A stretch of 64,000 nt of DNA, taken from Lingula anatina (Eukaryota > Animalia > Brachiopoda). The DNA lies in the NCBI GenBank assembly GCA_051362555.1, contig CM120646.1, positions 124,001 through 188,000 of the forward strand, in the 5' to 3' direction. Position numbers and translations under genes: made by a program. Shown here one piece after another: positions 24,691-47,946 of the stretch; position 1 is the stretch's first letter, and each line of letters starts with the position of its first letter. The notes beneath the pieces are model-generated. The model worked only from the letters and a program-made list of their open reading frames with translations. It did no database searches and was not told the origin of the DNA.

Positions 24691-27600
24691 TCACAGTTCT
24701 GTATGTAATCCACGGCTTTGGTTCTCCTCGTCATACTTCACCACCCACTTGGACGGCTGTTCACACGTCAGCTGACCATCTGGGCAAAACCTGCGATATG
24801 TCACGTCCTGGGAAAACCCAAGAATCTCGCGCTCCTCTTGGATACGGAATGAGAAAGTGGACACATAGGAGCCAATGAAAACCCTGCAATGAACAAGCAG
24901 ATTCCACACTTTTCTAAAATATGTTGATGGAATGGCATAACCAGTCAAAAACAAAAGGCTAAGATTTACTATGATTAGAATATGTAGTAATATTTTAAAA
25001 AGTGAACCATAACTTCAGAGAATTTTTATTAAATAGCTTGTATACCACTGTGCAAAAACATGTAAAGATTCCATCACAGCTGATTGATTATAGGATTCCT
25101 GGCCAAATATGTAAAATTTTCTACATCACTATCAATGCATTACGACACTTACCTTGCGTGTGCACATATCCACTGATCTATAATAGCAATACCGCCATCT
25201 TTAAAGGACTCCAGCACCTCTTTGGTAGGAGTATATTTGACTACTTTGTAGCCCTGTAGGTACCCCTTCAACTCCTCAAACTCTGCAAATTAAAAAAAAA
25301 AAAAACATAAACGTAGTGCAACTCATTACCTCCTCAGACAAGTTTAATACATGAACCATGGAGTCCTTGTAATGACCAGACAAAATTTTCTGAACTTAGA
25401 CTTGTGAAGATTCTTTTGTCTATAGCTATTTTTTTTTTTTTTTTTTAGTTTGATCTTACCATCCAATATTTCATCTGCTTGCAGTCAGATTTCATCAGGG
25501 AATGAGGTTGTGACAGGTATGACAACCTGTCACCCCCTCTGGTGTGCTATTTGGTCAGATCCCCCCAACTCCTAGTTTCTCACGTATAGTGTAGAACAGT
25601 TTCATTAGCTATGTTATTATAATAGACTTGTGAAGATTCTTTTGTCTATAGCTATTTTTTTTTTAGCACATATATTTTAGTGGCACATTTCAGCACTAGG
25701 GAAGATGACATTGAATTTCAAGTTTAGCTGTGACAAAGTTAACAGTGTCTAGGTACATATATAAATGGTTCCACAACATTATTTGGTACTTCTTTGGCAT
25801 CACTTAGTGTACAATGGGGCTACTTTACTCTAAAAAACACAAAAAAGGAGCCTCACAAGACAATAACTTTAGATCTTCACCAAAATTCAAAAGAAGTATT
25901 TCTGATAGTACCGGTACTACACAACCATTTTATGACAGACATGATTCAACATTTGAAGAAGAAAGTCTGACAAAGGTAGACACTGAAATCCTCATTTTTA
26001 AGGATGAACATGATGTTCCAAGTAGAAGAGGCCTAACTGACAAAAATATTCCGGAAAAAGTTGTTCACAGAAGCCAAGAAAGCATTTCCAGGTCTTTGTC
26101 TTGGCCATCCATTGCACAAATCATAAATGGACCAGAAGTTCAATTTACCAACCAAGATGACTGCAGCACAACAACATGGAGTAGACTGCGTCTGTCTGAA
26201 CCACTAGACAACAGCAGCAGATCAGGCAGCTATGCTAGTACAGCAAGTCAGACGTTTTTAAGTTTTCCACCTCTAGAAAATGTCAGAGTCAGCAGAGCAT
26301 ACAGCGACATTGGGCTTCTGATACACCAGACATCCTTGGATGAGGAACAAAACTTCCCAATATTTGCAACTAGAGGTAAGTTTCTTTTAATCATTTGGAA
26401 ATAAAAATATGTACACTTCTTTTAATTTTTAAAAATGATTCTATCAGCCATTTTTAAAAGCAATGACTTATAAATCCTCTTCTCCAAAGCAAGGATATAT
26501 GTACTAAATTAATGATAATTGTATAAATGCAAATCATAATTGCATATGTTGTTATAGATGAAGTATTTCATATTCCATACTTATTCTTTAACAATACCCA
26601 GATATGAAAAAAAAAAAAATGAAGTCATAAAAATTGAAACAGTACTGTAGTTGCTACAGAAGGAAACTTTTTTTCATGGCTGTTATATTAACTGAATACT
26701 TTTCATTAATTGTTTTCCCAGATAATGAGAGGCAGGAACCTTGTGTGACCCACAACTACATCACCGTGATAAACCATTCTGGATCCCAGACCAGTTTCCA
26801 AGTAGGAGATGGTGGCAACACAGTGTATTTTGGCAGGAATGAAACTATAAATGAACTGTTATAAAAGCAAACATGAAGCTTATTAGTGTGGTGGAAAAGA
26901 GGGATTCACGTGCAAACAATTGTAGCGGTGCAATTTCTCCGCAATCCAGAATAATGACGCTGTGATTTCTTTTTCATAAATTTAATAAGATAATGAAATA
27001 TTTACGCTACTAAGTGCACCAGCTGCTAATCGTCTGCTGCGCCGCCATGCTCCTTTTTCCGCTGACGCTACCCCGGTTAATGCACACCGGCACTATATTT
27101 ACCCCGTTACATGATGTATCATACCTAAATTTTCTTAACCCTTGATGTCTAAATTTTTTTATTCTTAGGTGTTCCCAGAGCAAAAAATGCCCCATGGGGA
27201 TTAAATTTAATGATATATAACACCCTGTGGCTCAAATAAGTGCATTTGAAATAATAATATAACTTTGTATTTATTGGGTGTGTGTAAAAGTTGCCATCTA
27301 CTTCTAGTCTATGGCAAAAACAATCATGATGCTTATATTTTGTATTTATTGGGTGTGTGTAAAAGTTGCCATCTAGTCTATGGCAAAAACAACCATGATG
27401 CTTATATTTTGTATTTATTGGGTGTGTGTAAAAGTTGCCATCTAGTCTATGGCAAAAACAACCATGATGCATATATTTTGTATTTATTGGGTGTGTCTAA
27501 AAGTTGCCATCCAGTCTATGGCAAAAACAACCATGATGCTTATATTTTGTATTTATTGTGTGTGTGTAAAAGTTGCCATCCAGTCTATGGCAAAAACAAT

Positions 27601-30600
27601 CATGATGCTTATATTTTGTATTTATTGGGTGTGTGTAAAAGTTGCCATCTAGTCTATGGCAAAAACAACCATGATGCTTATATTTTGTATTTATTGGGTG
27701 TGTCTAAAAGTTGCCATCCAGTCTATGGCAAAAACAACCATGATGCTTATATTTTGTATTAATTGTGTGTGTGTAAAAGTTGCCATCCAGTCTATGGCAA
27801 AAACAATCATGATGCTTATATTTTGTATTTATTGGGTGTGTGTAAAAGTTGCCATCCAGTCTATGACAAAAAACAACCATGATGCTTATATTTTGTATTT
27901 ATTGGGTGTGTGTAAAAGTTGCCATCTAGTCTATGGCAAAAACAACCATGATGCTTATATTTTGTATTTATTGTGTGTGTGTAAAAGTTGCCATCCAGTC
28001 TATGGCAAAAACAAACATGATGCTTATATTTTGTATTTATTGGGTGTGTGTAAAAGTTGCCATCCAGTCTATGGCAAAAACAACCATGATCAATGCTTAT
28101 ATTTTGTATTGATTGTGTGTGTGCAAAAGTTGCCATCCAGTCTATTGCAAAAACAAACATGATGCTTATATTTTGTATTTCAACGTTGATCCAGCCACGT
28201 TGACTCAATGTTGTATTTTGGTCAATGCCACAACCTTGCAGTTATGGATTGTTATTTAAAATATTAATTATTGAAAACGTGATACTTTGTTGATCAATAC
28301 TGTAACTAAATTTATCAAAATAATAACAAAATGGTTTTAAAGTAAAAGTGACAGTTGTTTTGTGTCTTTAGTTAACTAGTGAATTTTCTTAACTTGTTAT
28401 TCAGAAATACATTCCAACTAGAGGATCAGAGAGGCGATACCGCCTCCGAATATTGTACCACCAGCTGGAGTAAGCGCATTGGTATAGGCCCCCCCCCACA
28501 AAAAAAGGGACACCACCACCAGTCTTGTGCTTGACAAGCTGTAACAAGGCAGCAAAGCTGTCAAATGTACAGACAAAAAGCAGGAAATAACTATGCACAA
28601 AATAGGCTACTGTCAATTCTGATGCAAAAGTACATTATGTTAAACTGTAAATTCAACATCAAATTTTAATTATGCTCAACAGAAAATACCAATGAAAGTA
28701 AAATGTGTAACAAGCATAAGGCTTCAGGCCCATGAGAGTTCAAGTTCACACTTTGAAAATGTATAACTTCCAGAAAAAGAAGCCAATTAGACTGCTTTTC
28801 CAACTCAGGCTGCATGCCGATTTTCGAACTTGACCTCCGTTTTAGTAAGATCGATTACTCCTGAGAGTTTCACGACAACAGGCCTATCGGTTTTCCTTGA
28901 AATGTGTTTACAGTGTTGCATATATGTTGAAAAGTGAAAGAAAAAAGCATAACTTCTACAATAATGGCCCGATCATCCTGATTTTCGAACTTGACCTGCA
29001 TTTTATGAATATTCATCAGCTCTTTAAATATAAAGCCCAAAAGTAAAACTGCCTTCCACTTATCGTGTTTACAATGAAAGTGCAAGGTGCCGGCAACGGC
29101 GATGACGGCGACGACAGACGCAGGTGATGGCAATATGTACAGACACATCTGTACATATTTACTGTACTGTTTGAGAACAGTAAGTGACATGGTTTTTCTT
29201 AAATGGTCATCATGGGAGCAGTGCCCAAAATAGGTTTTTTTCAAATTTTGACGCAATATTACATAATGTTTAACAGCATAATGACCTTCAATTTTTAAGA
29301 ATACAATATTAGTATCATGGATATTCAGAAAATGTGACTAGCAAAGGTCTTCAGGCCCATGGAACTTCAAAGTCACAACTTGAAAATGCCAAAATGTAAA
29401 CAAGACAGCACTGTTCTGAAATGTTTTTTTTCCATTTTTAACAATTTTTAACATAAAACAAAATTAACAGTTTACTGCCATTTTTATATTATCAACTAAG
29501 AAAATTGATGAGATGGGAAAAATATCAATATAACAGTGTTAAATGTCCAATTTCTTCCATTCTGAGATTCTGAACATAGTGAATGATTGAATCTGACAAA
29601 CTGCAATGATGAGTTTATTTCCATTTTTGACACTTTATTACACAATACACGATAAAAAGTTTACCATCATTTTTACAAAATCAACTAACAATGTTGTAAA
29701 GATGCAGGAAATGTCAAACAAACACTTTTACGTATCTTATTAGTTTAATAATGAGACTGTTAACATGCCTAAGAATTGAATCTGAGGAAATGTGAAAAAT
29801 ATGCTGAAAAGTGAAAAAACCAGCATAACTTCTACAATAATGGCCCGATCATGCTGATTTTCGAACTTGACCTGCATTTTATGAATATTCATCAGCTCTG
29901 TAAATATAAAGCCAAAAAGTAAAACTGCCTTCCACTTATCGTGTTTACAAGGAAAGTGCACGGCGCCGGCATCGGCGACGGCGACGACAGACGCAGGTGA
30001 TGGCAATATGTACAGACACATCTGTGTCTGTACATAAAAATGCAATCAACAAGAATTCTCAAAATATGCAAAAAAATATATAACTGAAATGGTACAATCA
30101 AAGTTCAGTTCATCGTAAGGTAGGTCAAAGGTCAATTTCAAGGTCACAGTAAATTTCCAGTTTATGACTTCCTATTTAAGTTCAATAGTAACTATGGACC
30201 TATCTCAGCCAGTTTTGGAGATAAAAGGGAACCAAAATTTGTAAAGTTCAATTCATGATGAAAAGGTCAATTTCAAGGTCACACTTAGATTGCCAGTATA
30301 AGACTTCCTATTCAAATTCAACAGTAACTATGGGCATATCTTTGCCAGTTTTGGAGATAAAAGGGAACCAAAATTTGCAAAGTTCAGTTCATGATGAAAA
30401 ATAGGTCAAAGGTCAATTTTAAGGTCACAGTAAATTGCCAGTATATGACTTCCTATTCAAGTTCAATAGTAACTATGAACCTATCTGTGCTAGATTTGGA
30501 GATAAAAGGGAACAAAATTTGTAAAGTTCAATTCATGATGAAAAGTAGGTCAAAGGTCAATTTTAAGGTCACAGTAAACTGCCTCTAATGACTACATATT

Positions 30601-32675: not shown

Positions 32676-35600
32676 TAGAAAGGATCTATATATATTAATC
32701 TAAACCTTGGAAATTTTAACTTGAAGGCCATACATTTATACCCTACATATATTTAGCCATCAAACATGTCCTACTGCTAAACACATCCATGCAAATTTCC
32801 CGCTGGGTGGGGTTGATATAACATAGTTTTCTGATGTTGATACGTTGTTATCTGAGGTTGACACAACTTTCAAATCCAACGTTTATTCAATGTCTTTTCA
32901 ACGTTATGGTTCAACGTTGTTTCAACATTAAAACAACATAATTTGCCCGCTGGGTATTTTGTATTTATTGGGTGTGTGTAAAAGTTGCCATCCAGTCTAT
33001 GGCAAAAACAACCATGATGTTTTAATTTAGTATTTATTTGGTGTGTGTAAAAGTTGCCATCCAGTCTATTACACAAACAACCATGAGTGAAGTATCCAAC
33101 AATGTGACATAAAATTCTTAATAAAATTGACCATATTGAATTGATTTGGAATTTTTGTTTGCATGTTTGCATTATTTGGTCATATCTTTTTGCTAATTAC
33201 AAGTTTTTAGTATAAGACACAGTGTTAAAATGTTGATGCTGCAATTAGGGTTATCTTGAGCCCTCTTCTCCTTATGAAAGTACATTTGGGACCACTGGGT
33301 CCCCTCAAAACAACTCATTATCAATGAAAAATGTACTCAGTTTATCAATTAATTCATTTATTAAAAATTATAATATAATCTCTTGCTTCAAATGATTCTC
33401 ATATGTCAGAAAGGGACGCTGATGATGGTGATAAACATCCCAAAGGACATACCTATTAAAGATAATGAATCTGGAAACAAGAAACTAGTGGCATTTCTCA
33501 AAAACCAATTCTGACACTCAGAAACCAGAAGTTGGTTTTTTCAAACTTGTGAACTCCTGAAGATTTAATTTCGCATATAAGTCTGATTAAACATAGTTTC
33601 AATCAGGGTTTTTCCTAGGATTTGGGGTACAGTGTCTACTAATTGTAAATCTGCCATTAATAACAGATTCACATGAAGTCCAACCAAAGCTACAAAAAAA
33701 AAAAATCTGAGAGTGAGGTGGGAAGGGGGTACTTTTTAATTTATTTTATTAAAATATTCAAAATTTATTACTGAATAAAATTCAATAAAAATTGATAGAA
33801 TATTCATTGTATTATACTTAAGTTATATTTATGTTAACAATTTAACTTCTTTTGGTGTTATTATGTGACCGTTTGATTTTTTTAAATATATGAATTAAAT
33901 AAAATCAGTTTTAAAAAATCCCCTTTTTATTTAAATTCTCATAAATTAGTTATTACTAATTTCTCCCTTACATCAATATCACACTGGTATATGACAGCAC
34001 TGTTAATTTATCAAATTCCAGCACAAAATTTTGAACTATAAATAACATAGGTGTTGCTAGAGTCATTTAAAAAATGAAACATCTTACAAAATTTCAGATT
34101 ATATTTTGGCAAATAAACAACATTTCAACATGATCTTCAGTCCCAAAGATTTCACTTTCTAACTTCGAATGGTTGTGAGTACATAGCCTACAAGGTATTT
34201 GATTGACAGGCAGTATGTTGCCTTAACAACGAACTAGATATATCCAGTTCATCTGGTTCAATCTAGCTATTGTACCCATACCAGTAGTTGTGTAGTTTCT
34301 ATTTAAGGAATGGTCTTTACTACTAGAGCATGTATATTTTTAACCAAATAAATATTCAGTTGTCAACCTGTTATGTGAACAAATTCTGTCTTGTGAAGTT
34401 TTGGAAGGTGCTAACTTTCATAATTTGGCGGTAAGTTTGCTCAGACATCGTTTTGGGACTACATGTGTTTTGTGCCAAATGTAGGCCACTCTTTTCAATG
34501 CCGTGTAGGAAGAGACGAAAAGACATTTTGTATGCAACAAAAAATATTTCTTTTTCAAGATTTTTGTTCCAAAGTTCTCATAAAAGATGACCTGTCCGTC
34601 GGACAGCCAACCCTGCAAATTCACCTGTCCGAACTGAATTTTTACCTGTCCCGGACAGGCGGACAGGTGCTAATGTCGAGCCCTGCTTCAACAATGAAGT
34701 CATGGGTTTAACACATGGGTACATGCAGTCTATCCTTACAGTGCACTAAAACAGGTCAGTCAGTATCAATGGCACACAGGAAGCGTCCACTGTGGAAACC
34801 AGGCTGGGCAATATGGTCTCTCTGGGCCACGCAGAGAGGGCAAAACAGTTGCACATCAGTATTTACAGCGCACATACCAAAACTATACGAAGTTCACAAA
34901 CGCGCAAAATTGCTTTCTGGTTGAAATTCATGCATCCCAAAAAACTCCAGAACCACAGATTTTAAGCTAATTTGAAGTTTATGAGCCATTCAAAATTCAC
35001 AGTAATCAGTGGAATGTATGATTTTAATAAATACAAAATAAAACCTTACTGTTTTATCTATTTATATACAAATATGACCTTGGCGTGCTTCTTTTATCTT
35101 TGATCAAATATTAGCCTCCTCCCATAAATACCAGAAAGTATGATGCTGGGAAATAACCTTGATGCTTACAGGGTGTCCCACTAGTGCACTGTTAATGTAA
35201 CCCAAGAGTGTGAATTTCATATAGAAGTTAGCAAATCTACTGCTACAAATAACATGTCACTTGCTTTACTGACAAAGACATTATTGCCCTTTATAGAATA
35301 TGTTCCAAATATACTGTTTTGCTGAAGATACATGTACATGAATTCTACAGATGAAGATGTCGATGATTTTGATTCACTCTTCCTTTGGTATAGCTCTGAT
35401 TTCTTGAGTGATTGCTGCTTTTAGCTCTGGAATGGTGTGGGGGTTGTCCCTGTAGACTCCCTCCTACAGAAACCCCAAAATATAGAAATCTGGGGGATTA
35501 AGATGACCACTCAGGTTTGCATTTGTGGCCAATTTGTTGGTTGGGAAACTTGTGCCCCTGCTGAACACCGTTTGCACATCTTACACGGCTCATGAGCCCA

Positions 35601-38600
35601 AGTCTATGCCAGAATTTGTACAGACCCTCCAAATAGAGTTCCTTTGGGGGTATCTGAAAGATCAAGTCTACAGAAACAACCCCAACACCATCCCAGAATA
35701 ATAAAAATAAAATTAATGGCGTCCATGTTCTTGGGCTACATTTATACTTGGACACCCTGTAAAGAAGGTCTTAATCAAAGATAAAATATTTTTATAGTAA
35801 GTAGGTTAAAATGATGAGCTAGTGAACAGTGCCTTATTATGAAGATAAACGGTGGTGAGAGCACTTAGTTGGTGGCACTCAAGGTGAAACTTCCCTGTTT
35901 CACACATGGATAACTACTGAACTTTTTTATATAAGCAACAGGTATTCTAGCATCAATGAACTAGCCATGGGGTTGGGTTTCTCCAAAATATCTTCCAGTA
36001 AAACATACCACATGTCTTCAGCAAGTTTCACAAGTTACCAGAAATACAATAGTGCAAGAGCTACAATGTATAAGAAACATAGTACACCACTGAAAGCATT
36101 TGGCAAAGACAGTCAACCACAGGAAGACACAGAACTACTCACCAACGAAGATGATGTCTCCAACAGAAGATACCTAACAGGCAAAAACAACCAAAGAAAG
36201 GCCAAAATCAGTAGATACCTAGATAAGGGCGGAATTGCCAGATATTTGAGTTGTCCGAACATCGCAACAAGTCCGTCTTCTAACAAAAACGAACCAGGAT
36301 TTGCCATGCAAGGTGACTTCACTAGACCATCACTGCAGTCTTCTTTTACTTGCAGCCCATCAGATCTTAAAGGTGCCAAATCATGCTTGTTGAAGCAAGG
36401 TAAGCTTCTTTTAATCGATTAATAATAACACAAAAAAAGAACACTTCCTCAGTTACATTTTATCATCCATTTTAATAAACAATGACTACCTCAATGAAAG
36501 CAAGCAGACAAAATTAATGCTTATTGCATAAGTACATCTATAATTGCTTTCAAAATTATAGGTCCTTATAGATGATGTGTTGGTTATTCTTCTCCCCTTT
36601 GAAAACATTTGATACTCCACACCTAATCTTTAACAAAACCTAGTTAAGGGAAATAAAAGATAACAGAATACAGAAAAAATGCAGTTGTATACTAAAACAA
36701 TTGAAACAATAGTTGCTACAGAATGTAACTCTTATAATTTTATTGAATACTTCTTGATTGTTTTTCCAGATAATACCAGCAAAAAGGAGGGTAATGTGAT
36801 CAATGTGTACCATTATTACAATATCCTACCTGGATCCCATGTCAATCTCCAAGTAGGAAATGGAAACAGTATCAATTTGAACAAGGATGAAACTACAGAT
36901 GAACAAACCTAGCCGAGGATACATACATATCATTTAACAGACTGTAAAAGAATATCAAGTACAGGGGCGGATCCAGAGATATTTTCTGACAGTCTTCCAA
37001 ATTATTTTTGTTAATCCATCCTCCATTTTTGACCGTCTTCCGACAGAAAATATTAGATACCCGTCAATGTAAACTTTAAAATCTGACCGTCTTCCGGAAG
37101 ACCCAGAAGACGGCCTAAATCCGCCCCTGAAGTACTGTACTATACTGCACTAGTAGCTGGGGTAGCACTTGCAATTTTTTTTTTGCTAAGCCAAATCACC
37201 ACATTTTTGTCAATTTCTTATCAAAATGGTTAGAATTTGGCTAAAACAAGTCAAATCAGGCCCTTTTTCTTTAGCCAATTTAAGTCAGTTTTAGCATTTG
37301 GCTAAATTGGCGAGTGTTAGCGCTACCCCAGAGTAGAGTGATGGGCTGGTCCCTCACCAGAGTGAGATGAAATGAGCTGTCATTTCATTTATTAACACAA
37401 AATGATCATGGACATCTGACATACTTACTGATGGCAAAGAGGCTCCATTTTCATCTCCGTCTGTCTATCAATTTGTTTTTTCATTTGTCATCAGACTAAA
37501 TCAAAAAGTTTTGGATGGATCTGATAAAATATTCAGGATAGGTTATCATTGGCTAACTTGCACCACATTCACAACCAGAGTTGACCAGTGGACTGAATAT
37601 GGCCGATGCACTTGAAAGCTTGCCATGTAATCACCATGGGAAATCTATTCAGTGTACATTAGTGGATTATGCGACAAGCTTTCAAGGCAGACCACCATAT
37701 CTGATCCACAGATCTGTTACACCCCATTTCCATAGATTAGATCGAGCTACTTTAGATCGACCTAACTCCCTGGGGTTCACGCTAAATAGCTGTCAGCCGG
37801 GCGGACACGAAAGTTAATTACCCCCTTACAGCTTGTAGTAGGCGGGACGGACATTTAAGTCGGATTATCTGAAAGTAATCTAGTGAGACTCCCTGCGGGG
37901 ATAGATCGATCTAAAATCTATGGGAATAGAGCCTTAGTCCATGGATAACCTTCTTCTGAATGCACCCTTAAAAAGTGATTAGGATTTGGCGGTGACCTTT
38001 CATCCACATCATCTGGACCTAAGAACCTTTAAACGTTTCTTCACGCTAGCAAGATACACAAGGCCAATGACTTTGACCTTGTGCAATGTCCTCTCAATTC
38101 CACAATTTATCTTAGGATCTTTGGCATTGGTCTGTGCTCTTTAAGTACTTTTCTAGTTTACAAACTCATAATGACAAGATTTTATGTAATACTCATGTGC
38201 CTGACACTTGTTCTTTGCAGAGAATTGGGTGGATTTTTGTATTCATGTGATTAGAAATACAAATTCTGGACCTTCCTGTTGTGAAGCTTAAACTTATGGA
38301 AGCCCTCCCCCCCCCCCAAAAAAAAAAAAAAAAAAAAAAACATCTGATCCATGTACTCATACAAGATATGTTAAGATATGATACCACAACTAAATGTTAA
38401 CTTATGACGGCCCTGTGTTAAGTCTACTATAACCTTCTATGCACATATTCTACATATATCCACATACATAAGGCACTCTGCACAGGATATCATATACCCA
38501 ATTCAATGAATTTTCCTGATAATAAAAAAGCAATACTCTTCCTGACCAAGCATTGCTCAGCCAGTCCAATGTTTTATTCCATTAACATTAAGGAACCCAT

Positions 38601-41600
38601 ATAGTTCTAAATTACTGGTCAGTTATTAAGAATCACAGCTTCCTCCCTTGACTGAGCATGGTGTAGTTTTGATTTCATAACACAAGAAAATGGTTCAGAT
38701 TTTACGGGATTTAGCATCTTTAAGGTTTGAATTAGGAGATGTAAGAAGCTCCTCAGAAAATGAATATGACTGGAGAATTTCCAAATGCATGTAGAGTACT
38801 TTTAAGAAGAGATCATTATGATAGGTAATGTAATCTAAGCGCAATTTTTAATGTCCCATTCACGCCACATATCTATTTGTATGATATGCAGTTAACTGTT
38901 TGTTTGATTACGCTATCCCTACATTGTGTTCCCCAACTTCTCATATAAGTCATTCATACAAATGTACAGAGCAACTTTTACACCATTCAACTGACTAAGT
39001 TTATTGAATAACAAAAGTATTGCATGTTTCTGGGAAAAGAAAAATATTGTATTAATTGGTCTTTCTCTCATGAAATGTATGCTCAAAACTGAATGGAAAG
39101 ACTACTGTGTTTTGAGAATCAGTTTAATTTAAAAGATGTTGCAATTATTTCTTGATGTTGTATTAAGAACATGTAGAAAATAAAGGGAACTCTACCAAAG
39201 AGTTATAATTACCACCAAATACGGGCAAATATTACAGTGGGCAATGAAAAAATGTAACTAGCAGACCCATGGGAATTCAAAGTTACATCTGGCATAGGCC
39301 ATCTTCAAGATAAAAAATAATTAGGCAAGTTTTCAAACTCCAACAGCATTACTGTATTTTAGTCCTAAAATAATTCTTGCAAGACGATGAAAATGGCACT
39401 GACAGACACAAGTGTTGGCTATGTATTGAGACACTATGTATCTGTCATAAGGAGAGTGGGGAAAACCTCACATCATTAAAACCATAATGGCTGTTCCTTC
39501 CTGTGCCAGAGATATCATTCAGGTTAATGCCAAACCCAAACTTCATTTAAACAAGAGAGACCTTTTCTTATGATTATTCCTATGGTGACAGGTTAAGTAA
39601 ATAAAACAGTAGAAGTATTCCAGACACGATAGGAACAACAGATTCCTCTTGACCTGACAGATAAGAAGATTGGCTGCAATCTAACCAGACATCTAAGCTA
39701 AAAAATATATCTAGACACTTTACAACAAAGCAGCAAAGTTGCCCAATGTACAAACATGAAGCAGAAGCTAATGACAGCGCACAAAAAAAGGATTTTTGTC
39801 AATTTTGATGCAATATGTGTCTGTATATAATAATGTGTCAAGCAGTTCAAACAAGATTAATAATTAATTACAAAGAAACATCATTTTGGTTAATTTGATT
39901 AAAACTCAGCAATAAAAAACCTTTGTAAAAATATGAATTGTTCAAGTCATTGTTAAACATCCATCTTACTGGAAGTATATTGCATTTTGCCCATTAATTA
40001 CCCAGTGCCACTCAAGATAAGCCACAATCAATGCTTAACATATGTTTCGAACAAGTTTTTTCCTCCTTTTAAAATATTATTTTACTGTGTGTAAACTTTG
40101 ATTACCTGATATTCAAATATACAACTTCATAATTTCCATGTACTTAATCCCCCCCTCCCCCCAACAACCCTCTCCATGACAGGCTTCACTATATATATAT
40201 ATATATATATATGTCATATTGTTCACAAAAGCAGATAAATTTATAATTTGACATGTGATGTTAAAATCAAACAAACACACAATTTATCTTTTAGAAATTG
40301 AGAAACTGGTCTGATCTGGTCTGATCTGTTCCTGGCATTCCTACTGCAAAAAACATGCTTATGAAGAGGGTCCCATTGTGGGGAGTGTCACAGGAATGGG
40401 GTTGTTCAAGGAACATGCTAAATAATATCAGTGTTTCATGTATCTTGGTAAATAAAAAGGGGCTTTCACAAGTAATAAAAATACCCTACAAGAACCTCTA
40501 TGAAGCTCTGTCTTTCACTGCCATATATGTAACTGTACGCTCCTAAAAGCTGATAGGGATGATGTCATTTTTATTGTTGACAAATCAGTTTTCCATGTTG
40601 GTGAACAAGTCACTTGTTCGTCAGATTTTGATATTTGGTATGTAGACAAAAACATGAATCATTTCACGTAAACAAGCCTATGGCCAGCAACTTCAAAGGG
40701 AGTTGTGTGGTATAAAAAAAGTGGAGCTTAAACCTAAGTGTACCAAACCCTTTCCCCTTCAAATTTCCCCCCCCCCTCCCCCCAAGCTATGGGCCTGATG
40801 GATCTTTCAGCAGCAGCCAGTCTGCTAAATTAGCAAAAACTGCACGTCTACACTGAGGCATAACTTTATCGGTATACTAAAATTCACAACCTCGTTAAGC
40901 ATACCTTTTTTTTTTCAAGGTTCTCTTTCATGTCAATTTGTGAATTATCATATATTATTAATTATTTTGATAATTAACTTCATTATTGTTGTCATTGTGG
41001 AGGATAATTTTCTATAATAAAAAGTAATATTCCTAGATTTTGTTGATGTTATTTCTAATCTTGCACTATAAGGATATAAAAAATGAGATTTTAGTAAACA
41101 GTTTTCACAAGGTAAAGGATATTAGATGGTCATTTAATAAACAGGTGCTAAAAATATTTAATTTTCCAAAAGTTTCTCACCTTCTTTTGGAGCATCTGTG
41201 GCCACAAAGACAGCCTTCAGTTTGTGTTTCTCCAGCCCAGACTTTATCTGTTCTGCTGCATACAACAGACTGGGGACTTCTTCTTTGTGGGCATACAGGT
41301 AATCTCTCCGCCTCAGGTGAATACTCAGGTATGGCCCTCCCAGCGCGTCACCATGCTTTCTCTGGAACAAACACAGAGACGATATTAAAAAAAAAACAAA
41401 AAAAAAACAATAAGATGGTAATGAAGGGAAACTGATATTCTTAAAGGGATAATAACTCTTCGTTTCGGCCAAAAAATGAATTTTCCTAGAGTAAACATCA
41501 ATTTTCCCACACTTACAAATGGTTAATGAATCCATTTTTACATTCAAAGTTAGTCCCTGGTTTTTTCTAAAAAGTTTGTTTTTTTGTCAAAATCACTTAA

Positions 41601-44600
41601 GAGATTTTAACAGAGTATAGCCATCAATGGAGGTCACGTGGTCTAAAGACAAGCTCAGATATCAGAATAATAGCTATAACTGCCATTTTTGTGGTAAAAC
41701 AGAATATATTATATTTCTATGAGTTATTCACAATGTTTTTATTGTGAAATAAAGATCTCATACAAAGAGTTATTATCCCTTTAAATGATTTTTGGTACTA
41801 AAATAATTATATATGTCTTGGTTAAATAAATTCTTAATGTATCTTATCTTATCTTAGCAAGTGACCCACCCAAAGTCTGTCCCAATTCCAGGCATTTATT
41901 CCTAGAGTTATCATATTATAACATGACATCTTTTACATATTATAACCATACAGGTACTGTGAATAATGCCCCATCTTCCATGTGCAAGTTTTAGTATCCA
42001 CATTTCTCACTAGTGGAGCCACCTTACAGTAATATAGCAATATGTGACACTTCCAAAGTCTCTCCCCATTCAGGGCATTCATTCATTCTTCATACCATCA
42101 CATGATTATATGATGTATTTCATTACTATCATAACACATTATAACTATGATTCAGTAAATCATCTTGGTCAAATATACATTGATATCCACAACACACTAT
42201 ACAAGAAGGTTGAACTCCCAAGACTGGAAGTATGTTGAGTATATATTGATAATTCTGCCATATTTTCTCTTTCACACACAGTACACATTTATATGTGCAC
42301 CCAGTTACTACACATCTTGGCTTTCTTTGTCACAAATGTCCACATGAAACATAGTGCTGAGATTACTCATGGCCCGGATGTGTGTGCATTGAAAGCTTCA
42401 TTAAATTGGGACATAAGCGTACTGTGTGTAAAAGAGACAGAACACCAAAATCATCAATCTACTCAACATACCTTGTTCTTAGGAGTTCGGCCCCTTGTTA
42501 AAACTATACAGATACCCTCATCTTGGTCCAGTCCTCCAGCAGGACTGTCCTGTCCTTCTCGTCCGTAGAGTCCAGCTCCTGTTCTCGGAACTTGTCAGCT
42601 ATATCACGCAACTGTTTGGAAAACCTCATACTGCGACGAGCCTAAAACATGAAAACATGTCACTTAAGTTTTAAAAAATCAGGATTGAAAAGCTATATAA
42701 ATACTTTGGTTGCTTTTGTTATTTAAAAAGCACCTTTCCATATGACATTTCTTAATTTCCTTAAAAGAGAATTATTCTAAAAAGTATTCATATAAACAGA
42801 TGTTGTTTTCATATTATTTGTCCAAAATGTGCAAAGAATGTTTTTTTTTTACTTAAAACTATTTCAGAAGACATCATAAGTGCTGTCAGAGATTTGTGCT
42901 TACATTCATATGAAGTTGGTTAAGCAAAGGTATACATTAAAAGATTTGTGCTACATATTTCAGTAAAAAAAGTTCCAAATATAATATACTCTAAAGCTAA
43001 AAATAGAAGCTTAGAAGTGCAGTGCCAAACAATGGTAAGAAGGCCAACAGTTGACCCCCTCCCTTTAGACATGTTAAATATCCCCACTGTAAGCCACTCA
43101 TTCAAATAGCAGTGCAAGACAAATACCTTAAAGTCAGCTTTTAGTAGTTGGCTATCAAAGTTAGCAGCATCAACAAAGTCCAAAAACCCCAGTAGTGTTG
43201 TGCAACAGGCCCCAGGGTAAATTAGCCCTGGTTCACTAAAATAGGACTACTGTGCCTTTCTCTCAAAGAGTAAGAAATGGTTGATATTCTACGATAGATA
43301 TTTGCTATATTTCAATGGACTACTTCAGATTTTCCCAGAAACAACGTAGACACATATTTATTTCATTACATTAGACCATCTATCAACTAATGCTTTCCTG
43401 TGAGGCTGCCCCCCCCCCCCCCCCACCCCCGCCACCTAGGTCAACTTACTGTCCACCACTCAATACTCCACTCACTATAAGCACCATGGATTAACTCCTC
43501 TGCCCGGTCAAGCATAACTGACCTGCACCCAAAGTGAAAGTGAAAGTGAAACCCAAAAATGAAAGTGTCTCAAATGAAAAAAAAACATATAAATATATGA
43601 GGAAGATAAGAACAAAATATGCTGGGCTTCTGCTAGTGCAATATTTTTTTTTTCAAACAAATAATTAATCTTTGCCATAATTATTATATATAATTATTAT
43701 AATTATTATTTCATCAGGTTCCTCTTCATCCAATAATAGTTGTTTTGTCTGAAATATTTAACTTTAACATAAAAATTAATTTTCACTATACTAGAAAAGA
43801 CCCAGCAATTTAAATCATGCTTGAAATAAAACAAAAGAAATAAAGATGGTTTTAAAAACTTATTAATTGGGTAATTTGGCACATTTTGCACTAAGATATT
43901 GTTTGGGTGGGTGCAGATGTTAGCATGCTGTAAGTCTGTCTAAGCAGTCAGTACAAGCTTTTACATTAGGATCAGGTTATCATGCAGCACTAGTGTATGA
44001 AACAAGAACACATACCAGGTCTATAAACCATTAGTATTTGTCAGTACTTGAAGAACCCAGATGTAGCCAACACTAGACAGTGCTGAATCAGTCTTCCCTT
44101 TACAACAATATTTTGCATAAACATTTTGAGAAGCCAAAAATTAAAGGTGCCTTGACACAAACAATTTCTTTGAAAATTGGTAAAAACCTACCTAGCACAA
44201 GATATTTCTTATGAACCCCCCCCCCCTTCCTTTTCCTGCCTTTCTCAACTGATCAAAGTTTTAGATGGATTATGGAGAAAAGAGGGCTGGGGAGGGGGGG
44301 TCAGAAGGAAAGTAACCAAAAACTAGACTCACATTCCAGAACCAAGGGCTCCACCTGTCCCACTGGCCGTGAATGATTGTTTGTGCCATAGGAAACATCA
44401 CAGACCTTCGTAAGAACCAACATCAAAACAGAAGATATAAAATAACACAATACAGTAACAGATATATACTTGTGATAAATAAATATGATGCACCCTGCCC
44501 CAAAGAACTTTTAAAAAATGGAATACAACTTTCACATCCAAATATTTCCATCATAAACATATTGTATAATAATTGCTTGTGTTAATAAAGCAATATTTCA

Positions 44601-45772
44601 AGGTAAATCCTTGACTGATAATAGTTTTGCAAAGCTGACCCCAGTTCTCCAGGCATATATCTTATCTCATATCATATCAAACAAGTGGCATGTGGCAACT
44701 GCTAATTGTGTTAGATGTGACAGACACTGATTTTGTTAGATGTGACAGATACTGATTGTGTTACGTGTGGCAGACACTGGTTGTGTTAGATGTGACAGAA
44801 GCATTGTCACCATATAAAGGCCTAAGAAAAGATGGGATTTCAAGCCAGACATCTTTTTATCTTTGTAAATCTATCCTATTCTCACACACTAGAGGAGCAC
44901 GCACAACCAAGCTGAGATGCTAGATGAGATGTTAGAAATAACTGTCCACATTCTCCAGGTAATACTGGCAACTGTGAGTACAGTGAGAAAGTTAGAAGAC
45001 AGTCTGTTAGGTGTGCTGGAGAAGACAGTGTGTTAGGTGTGCTGGAGAAGACAGTGTGTTAGGTGTGCTCAACCAGGAAACAGTGATTTGGTGTGTACAG
45101 ACACAGACTTAACTTTACAAAGATGACCAATTTGACATCATCAACTAAGAGTTAAAGTGTCTAAGGCACAACATTGGAGTTATTGTTATCTGCCCCCTCC
45201 CCCCCCCATATCTCAGTAAGATTCTGAGTGAATACCCTCAGCTATGACCACAGTGTACTGCAGTGTACGAGCAGGCAGCTGTAATACTCTGGTTTCATAC
45301 TGGCCATGCACTTTGTACTTTCACAAAACAAATAAAAACTATTAGCCAATCAATTTTTAGCAAAACAAAGTCAAAATGACAGAACTATAAAAATATCCCA
45401 ATTTCAAAAGCCCAAGAACTTTATGTTCAGCATTTGTCTACAATGCCCCCAGTGTGCCTAGACAAGGACAGGGTGGACCGACATGGCAAGACAAACTGTT
45501 GTGCTAGTAACACTTACATCCCAATACCATTTGTTAGCAAAGAAGTCATGTTGTAAGTGTTCTGCCCTAAGCAAGCAGACAGACCTAAGATAGAAGATGT
45601 CAGGTGTTAGTCCAGGTAACAAGTAACAGGTAACATGGATGATGTATGCTGTGTGTGGACCGATTATTACAGGAACATATCAGAATATGTTTGTCATTAA
45701 ACGTCAAAACTATGTACATGGCAAACAGGGTTACAGAAAATAGAAAGTAAAGCACAAGCACAACCACCATCT

Positions 45773-45811
<39 letters not shown>

Positions 45812-47946
45812 TCTTTTTTTTTCTTTTTTTTGCAAAATCTCAATATTTTTTTATAAAATGGAAGAATTTTTTTCATTCCAACAAGCCATAATAAATTTCA
45901 AGAGACGTATATCTGTGCTAGCAACAGCCCAGTTTTAGATAAAAAAATGTGAAACTTATCAACACAGACTACATTACTAGAATAATGGACAACTTCATCA
46001 ATTCCAAAGAATAAAATATAACTAAAAATTGAGACAAGATTACATATAAGCAAAGTTTCAGTTTCAGCAAAGCTTTAACTCTAACCTAATGTCCCAAACA
46101 TCCAAAACATTCATCTGACAAAAATCCAGTTCACTGACCTTGCTGTGATGTTGTGCATCAGAAACGGTTTCATGGAGCTGGCCTGAGCCTGCACTGACAA
46201 ACACTGGAGTTTTTTGGCCTTGGTCTCCTCATATCCCCAGAACCAGCCTCTCCAGGCACCTTCTTCATCCTGATGTAAATACATACATGTATAACAGTTA
46301 GTATATATCAGTGATAATCTCAGTGCAATGAAATGTGCCTTCACAGACTAACATTTCAGCTTTCACGTCCTTGTTAACCTAGAAACTGCATCTTCAACAT
46401 AAAAGATCAATAGCTTTATATTAATTACACAAGGGAAATTATTGGCCCAAGGTTCTTTTAATCATTAATTGCGGCAAATGTAAGTTTATGCTGAGTGGCT
46501 AACATAAATGAAATGATAAGTTAACCATAATCCTCAAAGGATAGTAAAAATATATTACTTTGAAATATACATTAGTGAGAAATAGAGTTACAACTGCAAA
46601 TTACTGGCTACACATTATTTACAAATTTTTTTTAAGTCAAATCTTTCATTAATTAACATTTTCTTTAACCACAATTATTTATTCTACAACCATTGCAGGA
46701 GCTTAAAATGTTAGTTATAGTATATATAAACCATGTACCAATTAAGTGTCTTTAGCCAAAATTATTTATTCTACAACCATTGCAAAAGTTTGAAATGTTT
46801 GATAGGAACCATGTCTTCAGTGCAAACCTTATGATAATAGTTCTGGTCCAGGCAGTCACGGATGTCCATTCTTTCTTCCCACTTTCCATCTTTCCATCCC
46901 TCCTTGTATCTCTGCAGGTAATACACCTCCTCAATAACAGCTCCTCCAGACACTGAAAAAATTAGACATGGTTTGTTTAACACTGATCACAACTACAAAC
47001 CCTGATAGGGTAAATGTTTTCAACCACATATATTCTTCTTTTACTACAGATAATTCTACTTTAAAATAGCTGAGTATTTTTATTTTTACTTTGCCAATTC
47101 AGCATTGAAAGTTTAAAATTTGCTTAAAAAAAAAGTTTAGTTTAGTTTTGAGGCTAAGAACATCATCCCTGCCAAATTTATCCCAGAATATGTCAAAAAC
47201 TTTCTGGTCAAATACTAAAATGCAGCACTCTACTTTTAATAAAATCCTTATACTCCATCACGGGGACGTGTCTCCCGAGGCTCTCCAGGTCAAAGAAGGT
47301 CCCCCAGGGCACCTTGATCTGATCAATGTTAGACTTCCAATGATAGAGCCTCCCCCAGGGGGGAAGTACCAGGGTCCACGGCTCATCTTCATTGAGGAAT
47401 TTAACAAGGTTTGCCACACGAATATACACATCTCGACGCAGATTAAATCCCTCTCCTGGGTTAACATCGTACAGGAGAAACCTAGAAACAATACAAACAA
47501 GACGAATATTGAAAAATCTAAAACCATCAGTTCAAATGTATCACACAAAAGATGTTTTAATGTAACAAGTCTTTCTCTTACCCAGAAACAATGTCATCGG
47601 ATGACATGTTCAACTGATATTTTAAATAATTTCTTAAATTCAAATACTTATGTATTCCCTAAACTTTTACTTAAAATGGCTTTATTATTTAAGAGTTATA
47701 GGTATCATAGCTAATATTTTGAATTAATTAACTACAAGCACAATGTTAGTGTGCCAGCGTCAAGCGGCTCACACCCCCAGATCTTCATTACCTCATTGGC
47801 TTAGCAGAACCAAAAGCAGTTGTATCTTTGCCATCTGCACTATATACAATTCCATCGGCGTCTTCGCGTTGTAACGAGGTCCTTGTCACACATAAACAGA
47901 CAAAAAGTCCTAAGACCCGTTTTAAAGCTGCCACGTCCACCGCCAT
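24691..47946 (-). CDS. POFUT2: GDP-fucose protein O-fucosyltransferase 2, multi-exon
   Basis: Exons (minus): 47946-47792, 47481-47234, 46952-46828, 46269-46139, [45584-45518 or 44405-44333 or 43522-43450], 42641-42516, 41361-41181, 25282-25153, 24883-24691. Phase-consistent, ~451-453 aa. Has a signal-peptide-like N-terminus, [24 protein letters not shown] (catalytic Glu motif), [59 protein letters not shown] and [16 protein letters not shown]. Confidence 0.95.
25814..26864 (+). CDS. Nested two-exon gene A (~234 aa): N-myristoylation motif, Ser-rich low-complexity body, C-terminal RHIM-like motif
   Basis: Exon 1 25814-26375 (|GTaagt), exon 2 26722-26864 (tttcccAG|), phase 1 consistent. TATATAAA at ~25758. 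Motifs MGLLYSK, RSLSWP and [25 protein letters not shown]. Paralogue at 35967. Confidence 0.75.
27265..28180. repeat. 69-bp minisatellite, ~13 copies; ~2 more units at 32955-33087
   Basis: Unit tgtatttattgggtgtgtgtaaaagttgccatc(t/c)agtctatggcaaaaacaaccatgatgcttatattt. Confidence 0.9.
28542..30040 (+). mobile_element. ~1.5-kb composite interspersed repeat (Helentron/HINE- or 'pearl'-like); inverted copy at ~54645-56293
   Basis: Starts AACAAGGCAGCAAAGCTGTC and ends with a GACGGC-like microsatellite plus the hairpin TATGTACAGACACATCTGTGTCTGTACATA and an A-run. The reverse complement matches 54645-56293. Class assignment is inferred from structure. Confidence 0.65.
30100..30606. repeat. ~146-bp tandem repeat, ~3.5 copies
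   Basis: aaggtcaattt(c/t)aaggtcaca recurs at ~30128, 30263, 30409, 30554. Confidence 0.75.
31509..32059. mobile_element. Second copy of the ~550-bp MITE; 5-bp TSD AAATT
   Basis: aaatt|CAGGCCTACCCAACTACC ... GTAGTTGGGTAGGCCTG|aaatt; interior closely matches 9919-10471. Confidence 0.9.
35169..35759. mobile_element. Tc1/mariner-superfamily relic with TA TSD and transposase fragments on both strands
   Basis: ta|CAGGGTGTCC ... GGACACCCTG|ta. Plus strand ~35639-35698 encodes [20 protein letters not shown]. Minus strand ~35500-35385 encodes LNPPDFY and, after a frameshift, [24 protein letters not shown], typical of the region after the SPDLNP motif. Confidence 0.75.
35967..36912 (+). CDS. Nested two-exon gene B (~191 aa), paralogue of gene A
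   Basis: Exon 1 35967-36399 (|GTaagc), exon 2 36770-36912 (tttttccAG|), phase 1. Exon 2 CDS is 143 nt as in gene A and the intron ends are homologous. TATATAAG at ~35928. Motifs MGLGFSK, RYLSCP and [28 protein letters not shown]. Confidence 0.75.
36962..37129. mobile_element. MITE CAGGGGCGGA...TCCGCCCCTG, 5-bp TSD AAGTA; decayed copy at ~51643-51811
   Basis: Termini and TSD read directly. Confidence 0.75.
37157..37331. mobile_element. MITE CTGGGGTAGC...GCTACCCCAG, 5-bp TSD AGTAG
   Basis: Termini and TSD read directly. Confidence 0.7.
43450..43522 (-). CDS. POFUT2: POFUT2 exon 5 variant C ([24 protein letters not shown])
   Basis: ttttcactttcactttgggtgcAG|g...tggaca|GTaagt; 73 nt, phase 2 to 0. 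Confidence 0.85.
44333..44405 (-). CDS. POFUT2: POFUT2 exon 5 variant B ([24 protein letters not shown])
   Basis: ggttcttacgaAG|g...tggaat|GTgagt; 73 nt, phase 2 to 0. Confidence 0.7.
45518..45584 (-). CDS. POFUT2: POFUT2 exon 5 variant A ([22 protein letters not shown])
   Basis: catcttctatcttAG|g...tgggat|GTaagt; 67 nt, phase 2 to 0. Confidence 0.8.

Follow-up and report, generated by a model that had tools for sequence, protein, structure and literature searches.

Does the POFUT2 gene of the brachiopod Lingula anatina choose between alternative versions of one exon, and if so, what would the choice mean for a fold-sensing fucosyltransferase of the ER? An initial annotation of the 64 kb window (the whole stretch of DNA analysed here) described exon 5 as present in three tandem versions, only one of which could be included at a time without shifting the reading frame, and proposed that they differ in acceptor preference. 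A mutually exclusive exon cluster in POFUT2 is real, and RNA reads confirm it for two of the three copies (5b and 5c). Our best explanation, which we hold with a little more confidence than doubt, is that 5b and 5c are spliced in singly, that 5a, though intact, is absent from the RNA reads, and that the swap, located by mapping at the client-binding cleft, probably tunes the preference for particular thrombospondin repeats (TSRs) rather than acting as a switch.

The POFUT2 gene and its three copies of exon 5

The gene is Lingula anatina POFUT2, as judged from peptide identity: the peptide of exon 2 matches the POFUT2 of this species with 100% identity, and the next best match is 80% identical. 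We identified nine exons on the minus strand of the window, from 47946 to 24691. Exon 1 (coding part 47792..47946) encodes a signal-peptide-like N-terminus; RefSeq places the start four codons earlier. The catalytic Glu, which aligns to E52 of C. elegans and E54 of human POFUT2, is in exon 2 (47234..47481). Exon 3 (46828..46952) is joined in RNA to exon 4 (46139..46269), which ends in phase 2, and exon 6 (42516..42641) starts in phase 0. Loose read ends out of exon 6 match exon 7 (41181..41361), which contains the phosphate-binding Arg matching human R294. A 15.9 kb intron precedes exon 8 (25153..25282). Exon 9 (coding part with stop, 24691..24883) ends in an HTEL ER-retention-like motif.

Three versions of exon 5 lie between exons 4 and 6 on the same strand. 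Exon 5a (45518..45584, 67 nt, ag/GTAAGT) encodes a 22-residue segment of what we refer to as the short class. Exon 5b (44333..44405, 73 nt, ag/GTGAGT) encodes a divergent member of a 24-residue long class, and exon 5c (43450..43522, 73 nt, ag/GTAAGT) encodes a typical one. Joined alone between exons 4 and 6, each gives a full-length open frame with one terminal stop (451 amino acids with 5a, 453 with 5b and 453 with 5c). Stops are reached when no copy, any pair or all three are joined, as the initial annotation had reasoned from the exon lengths. The exon 4–6 interval contains 68 open AG..GT segments of length 1 mod 3. Because open segments of such length are common, frame and splice sites alone are weak proof, and homology decides.

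A profile of 140 exon-5 peptides (including 5b and 5c, excluding 5a) finds exactly three copies in the 64 kb window, with scores of 27, 41 and 51 bits; the next match scores 4.7 bits. Using profiles without Lingula sequences, the better class scores 23.2 bits for 5a, 28.0 for 5b and 61.9 for 5c. The best class is short for 5a and long for 5b and 5c. The copies are homologous exons in tandem with equal phases, and the positions, phases, splice sites and peptides first described for them all hold. In 5a, both the frame and the splice sites are intact, and its splice signals (a consensus donor and branch-like motifs) are equal to any in the gene.

The enzyme itself resembles known POFUT2 (GT-B; human 4AP5/4AP6, C. 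elegans 5FOE/8AY1), with 46-57% identity, the same fold, and the catalytic Glu and Arg kept. Both residues are encoded by shared exons, outside the swapped segment; the Arg (R307) is invariant in 50 sequences. The O-FucT domain (PF10250) is recognised with 178 bits in both the 5b and the 5c isoform. Unlike Lingula, with three tandem exons of which two encode a loop longer by two residues, the human, hagfish and amphioxus proteins compared here show one version of the segment.

The window holds other features near and within this gene. On the plus strand of the 15.9 kb intron 7, opposite to POFUT2, there are Ser/Thr-rich open stretches at 25808-26401 (198 aa) and 35859-36419 (187 aa), for whose products no Pfam match was found. 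Their surroundings are diverged duplicates in collinear order (pieces 68-84% identical), and the two stretches are perhaps nested antisense genes. Intron 7 also carries copies of a ~60-base tandem repeat at 27250-28241 and 32940-33100. Open stretches at 19460-19909 and 20974-21513 on the plus strand belong to a neighbour gene converging on POFUT2, again with no Pfam match.

Splicing of the copies and the basis of exclusivity

Eight of the nine listed raw-read RNA runs were mapped, using 6-30% of each run, and a joint was listed only if at least three reads contained it. Summed over these runs, exon 4 is joined to 5c by 126 reads and to 5b by 57, and exon 6 is joined from 5c by 183 reads and from 5b by 95. 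At the same threshold, neither a 5b–5c joint nor an exon 4–6 skip is listed in the eight runs. Decay of co-inclusion and skip forms could conceal them from RNA reads. Both observed forms are already in RefSeq by automated annotation (isoform X1 contains 5c, isoform X2 contains 5b), as the initial annotation had overlooked.

No joint of 5a is listed in the eight runs (at least three reads per joint, 6-30% of each run), versus 183 exon-4 joints to 5b or 5c. Read depth over 5a is about 1 in runs X1 and X3, the same as in the adjacent intron, and zero in the six other runs. A 5a protein is also absent from the RefSeq cluster, which has two members. Thus, the junctions predicted from exon 4 and to exon 6 are found in RNA for 5b and 5c, but those of 5a are unseen; mutually exclusive use, as first proposed for all three, holds for 5b and 5c. 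We infer that 5a is used rarely or in particular tissues, or that it is being lost.

Apparent joints between 43409-43430 and 44216-44236 were dropped as poly-C mismapping. A base mismatch was found at position 43450, the final base of 5c: each of the 183 listed reads that join 5c to exon 6, in all eight runs, fits a coding-strand G where the window has A. The difference is silent. A rare allele or an assembly error is the likeliest cause, and complete editing is possible.

Exon 5c is the commoner form in six of the eight runs. The 5b share is 0.32, 0.31 and 0.26 in runs X1, X2 and X3, with 0 of 8 reads in X4 and 2 of 5 in X5. Three runs of one study give 0.87 (X7), 0.71 (X8) and 0.25 (X9), with Fisher p values of 0.001 and 0.008 for X7 and X8 versus X9, from counts that are not independent, as they include mates and double-junction reads. 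Runs X7 and X8 were mapped at stricter likeness than X9. This should lose divergent 5b reads, so the bias opposes the observed difference. The 5b/5c ratio shifts between samples, which may reflect tissue, stage or individual.

Among the listed differences between samples, 5b has four that change an amino acid and two that are silent, versus six and 26 in exons 3, 4 and 6 (p 0.03). The excess fits relaxed selection and adaptation equally well. Together with the absence of 5a from the eight runs, it would also be expected if the copies were tolerated redundancy, i.e., an easily duplicated exon of 1-mod-3 length that is policed by the frame, with interchangeable copies and with 5a and 5b drifting. 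We regard this as an unlikely explanation, though one that must be weighed. The variation of the 5b/5c ratio by sample argues against it, as does the retention by 5a of its frame, branch-like motifs and consensus donor despite its long branch (length 0.93).

How is exclusivity kept? By frame, every wrong combination of exon-5 copies would be a target for decay: combinations other than a single copy would hit a stop and be degraded, perhaps aided by pairing between an element after 5b and one after 5c. Steric exclusion was rejected for Lingula, given internal introns of 1112 and 810 nt and AG-free zones of only 44-62 nt. The candidate elements are a C/U-rich stretch directly past the 5b donor (44270..44318, minus strand), a putative selector, and a G-rich stretch directly past the 5c donor (43390..43445, minus strand), a putative downstream docking site or a plain G-run enhancer. 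In predicted duplexes between 45 pairs of intron starts, 5b–5c is the strongest (-61.9 kcal/mol) and 5a–5c the second (-45.9 kcal/mol). Equally strong pairing was found for 5b–5c in 8 of 1598 windows, 0 of 3993 random pairs and 5 of 500 shuffles, and for 5a–5c in 90 of 1598 windows, 6 of 3993 random pairs and 158 of 500 shuffles. The minus strand has 14 G-runs, and the element past 5c, which is one of them, also folds back onto the 5c acceptor. The 5b element has a predicted rival pairing with a local G-rich arm (44247-44211). Base 43450 is a predicted bulge.

The arrangement resembles the docking-site clusters outlined in PMC6071210 (14-3-3 zeta, Mhc, MRP1), in that there are three exons and the strongest predicted pairings link the intron starts of 5b and 5a to that of the last exon. 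Unlike those clusters, the Lingula pairing is based on a G-run, is predicted, and is significant for 5b only. Pairing of the elements after 5b and 5c as selector and docking site is no more than a lead from prediction.

The swap in other animals and the age of the copies

Also absent from the initial annotation is the recurrence of the swap in four other phyla. We surveyed 40 named species with at least two proteins (30 clusters were chosen, mostly isoform-named, and the result is not an unbiased rate). In 25 of them including Lingula (24 of the 39 others), proteins whose flanks match differ by a swapped exon-5 segment; these species are Lingula, 10 molluscs, eight echinoderms, two hemichordates and four corals. 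Outside Lingula these swaps rest on automated annotation, with proof from DNA at one locus. This coral-like locus (L019, 10573-10752) has two 67-nt copies of exon 5, phase 2 to 0, 46 nt apart, and the 46-nt intron looks compatible with steric exclusion. One exon of L019 holds residues 4-224, which Lingula spreads over four. No swap was annotated in the other 15 species (three amphioxus, hagfish, human, three gastropods, a nemertean, a horseshoe crab, Nematostella and four bivalves); a lack of annotation is weak evidence of absence. In each of ten annelid-like loci spanning exon 4 to exon 6, there is a single long exon.

Across the sampled proteins, the exon-5 segment has either 22 residues, the vertebrate length (97 distinct peptides), or 24 residues (43 distinct peptides). 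All 43 distinct long peptides have His-Gly at positions 12-13, Ser19 and Trp23 (His12 by construction), and the named proteins of this class are all from brachiopods, molluscs or annelids. Only the short class was found in the proteins examined from gastropods, nemerteans, amphioxus and vertebrates. Single-class lineages thus exist in both directions, so either class apparently can serve alone, as redundancy of the copies would predict. However, chiton, scallops, mussels and the Pacific oyster keep both classes, each with its own motif, and twin copies are retained across echinoderms, hemichordates and corals; both observations speak against redundancy. Four Mytilus species have three versions each, one short and two long, which is the same pattern as in Lingula.

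The split between short and long classes likely predates the divergence of brachiopods and molluscs. An exon-5 tree has 24 columns and support for 4 of 51 branches. Given this weak tree, the case for an old split rests on the motif and the two-residue insertion that are shared. Exon 5c is 83% identical to the segment of a clam. In AU tests over the 24 columns, neither a Lingula-only clade of the three copies (p 0.136) nor a clade of 5b and 5c (p 0.362) is rejected. The only trace of duplication in the introns is one 18-nt G-run match. An old duplication would have produced the short and long classes ahead of the brachiopod-mollusc split, and 5b would have arisen later from the long class as a fast-changing extra copy. 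The great age first suggested for the copies is borne out to the extent that Lingula and molluscs have both classes in common. A search centred on 5b returned two candidate proteins, too few to judge the presence of 5b-like exons elsewhere.

Echinoderm, hemichordate and coral pairs consist of two short-class members. The seven cnidarian peptides cluster together (99/92), which favours separate duplication or homogenisation in cnidarians.

Some loci carry a single form in an unusual setting. L001 (10001-11182), L002 (2750-3931) and L004 (4806-6005) are intron-free over residues ~50-444; the long segment is fixed in L004, which is clam-like, and the short segment in L001 and L002. They may have arisen as retro-copies, each fixing a single splice form. 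In the Pacific oyster, the POFUT2 gene with alternating short and long segments (P0270-P0277) is accompanied by another, divergent one with the long segment only (P0110, P0283-P0287). We also considered that one animal might encode the short and the long form in separate genes (L002 and L044, from the same assembly). This was rejected, as a tree free of exon 5 separates the two widely; they may come from different organisms.

Exon 5 at the client-binding cleft

The initial annotation placed the segment near the TSR acceptor cleft, and alignment agrees. In the crystal structure of C. elegans POFUT2 with a group 2 TSR, as described in PMC9828666, non-conserved TSR side chains contact Tyr225 and Leu221/Tyr145/Trp141, and direct contacts are few. 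C. elegans residues 211-232 map to exon 5, including Leu221 and Tyr225 (the numbering was verified on E52, R63, W141 and Y145). By this alignment, the swap is located at the client cleft. The residues at the 221 and 225 positions are Gln and Phe in 5a, Ile and Trp in 5b, and Ile and Tyr in 5c, and the two extra residues of the long class come right after these positions. Gln at the Leu221 position, as in 5a, was found in 0 of 97 short peptides. Exon 5b has lost the near-invariant Arg6 and Glu8 and, in addition to Trp at the Tyr225 position, has six residues absent from the 42 other long peptides.

Predicted models of the 5b and 5c forms have the same strand-helix-loop-helix layout over the swapped segment. 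The 5c model matches human POFUT2 (4AP5) with an rmsd of 2.0 A and a TM score of 0.95 by target length; TM scores against POFUT1 are 0.65-0.72. Mean model confidence over residues 231-240 is 79 for 5b and 84 for 5c, a small gap between models built from different alignments.

We infer that acceptor preference may differ among the isoforms. As POFUT2 grips varied clients by few direct contacts, affinity would shift when these contacts change. Changed residues at the Leu221 and Tyr225 positions, with a loop longer by two residues, would move affinity among client repeats, and this in turn would alter the efficiency of the ER folding check by tissue or stage. A stronger form of the idea is that each copy serves its own client class, such as group 1 or group 2 TSRs or, for 5b, some novel type of domain. 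The differing contact positions, and in 5b the Trp at one of them and the six unique residues, could be read in this way, and the Drosophila pgant9 gene provides a precedent in the account of PMC6115407. We nevertheless consider such a strict switch quite improbable. The single-exon enzyme is reported in PMC9828666 to handle group 1 and group 2 TSRs alike, making a strict split between the two groups doubtful, and lineages with a single class would have lost a client class. Because the single-exon enzyme binds both groups and such lineages exist, tuning is likelier than a strict switch. The account in PMC6096484 of POFUT2 recognition as mostly water-mediated and tolerant would also suit interchangeable copies.

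The swap could instead act away from the clients, by tuning stability, turnover, tolerance of temperature or salinity, or interaction with an ER partner; alternatively, 5b could be a weak form that dampens activity. Exon 5 also encodes a core strand and a helix, near-invariant Arg6 and Glu8 are altered in 5b, and the 5b model is slightly less confident over 231-240. We judge this improbable: the changes that define the classes are in and right after two mapped contact positions, and the difference between the models is subject to the limits given above. Tuning of client preference at the cleft is our preferred reading.

The closest functional precedent for splice choice in a glycosyltransferase is Drosophila pgant9 A/B. 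As presented in PMC6115407, it changes a loop at the acceptor site and thereby substrate preference. The pgant9 gene encodes a GalNAc-transferase, and its case has been demonstrated biochemically and in vivo. Lingula POFUT2, in contrast, is a fold-sensing ER fucosyltransferase whose swapped segment belongs to the catalytic domain and may affect preference. Tandem duplicated exon substitutions surveyed in PMC9741552 are also comparable, being homologous exons that are used singly and are old, often of recurrent origin; the GALNT13/Pgant5/gly-5 family is included. That survey covers human, fly and worm, unlike the present case, and the human POFUT2 proteins compared here are without such a swap. 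The terms POFUT and fucosyl have no occurrences in its main text. Term look-up found no mention of a POFUT2 exon-5 cluster in the searchable text of two reviews (PMC12717137, PMC11990869) and a Schistosoma survey (PMC3655985).

The kind of event is known, and the POFUT2 exon-5 case seems undescribed: no description was found in full-text searches of one literature library, as judged from the papers listed. Work by Loriol et al. in 2006 reportedly treats POFUT gene evolution and splice variants, mainly bovine, and could bear on novelty.

A more far-reaching and rather doubtful scenario is that a pair of exon-5 copies arose before the bilaterians (or before the coral split), that five phyla retained or regenerated it, and that chordates lost it. 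Each copy would favour its own set of TSR proteins, and 5b of Lingula would provide a fast-evolving third cleft for lineage-specific clients. If this were true, early animals would have chosen clients by splicing, and the single broad POFUT2 of textbooks would be a reduced state.

POFUT2 has been described as a single enzyme of broad scope, checking dozens of dissimilar TSRs by few direct contacts and much water. Here an exon of a housekeeping ER enzyme has been duplicated and kept, once or repeatedly; such events cluster in channel and muscle genes. The exon-5 copies, retained in five phyla, are natural variants of a contact segment, with the rest of the enzyme unchanged. Comparison of the variants on a panel of TSRs would test the role of the loop in client preference and may offer a route to retuning POFUT2.
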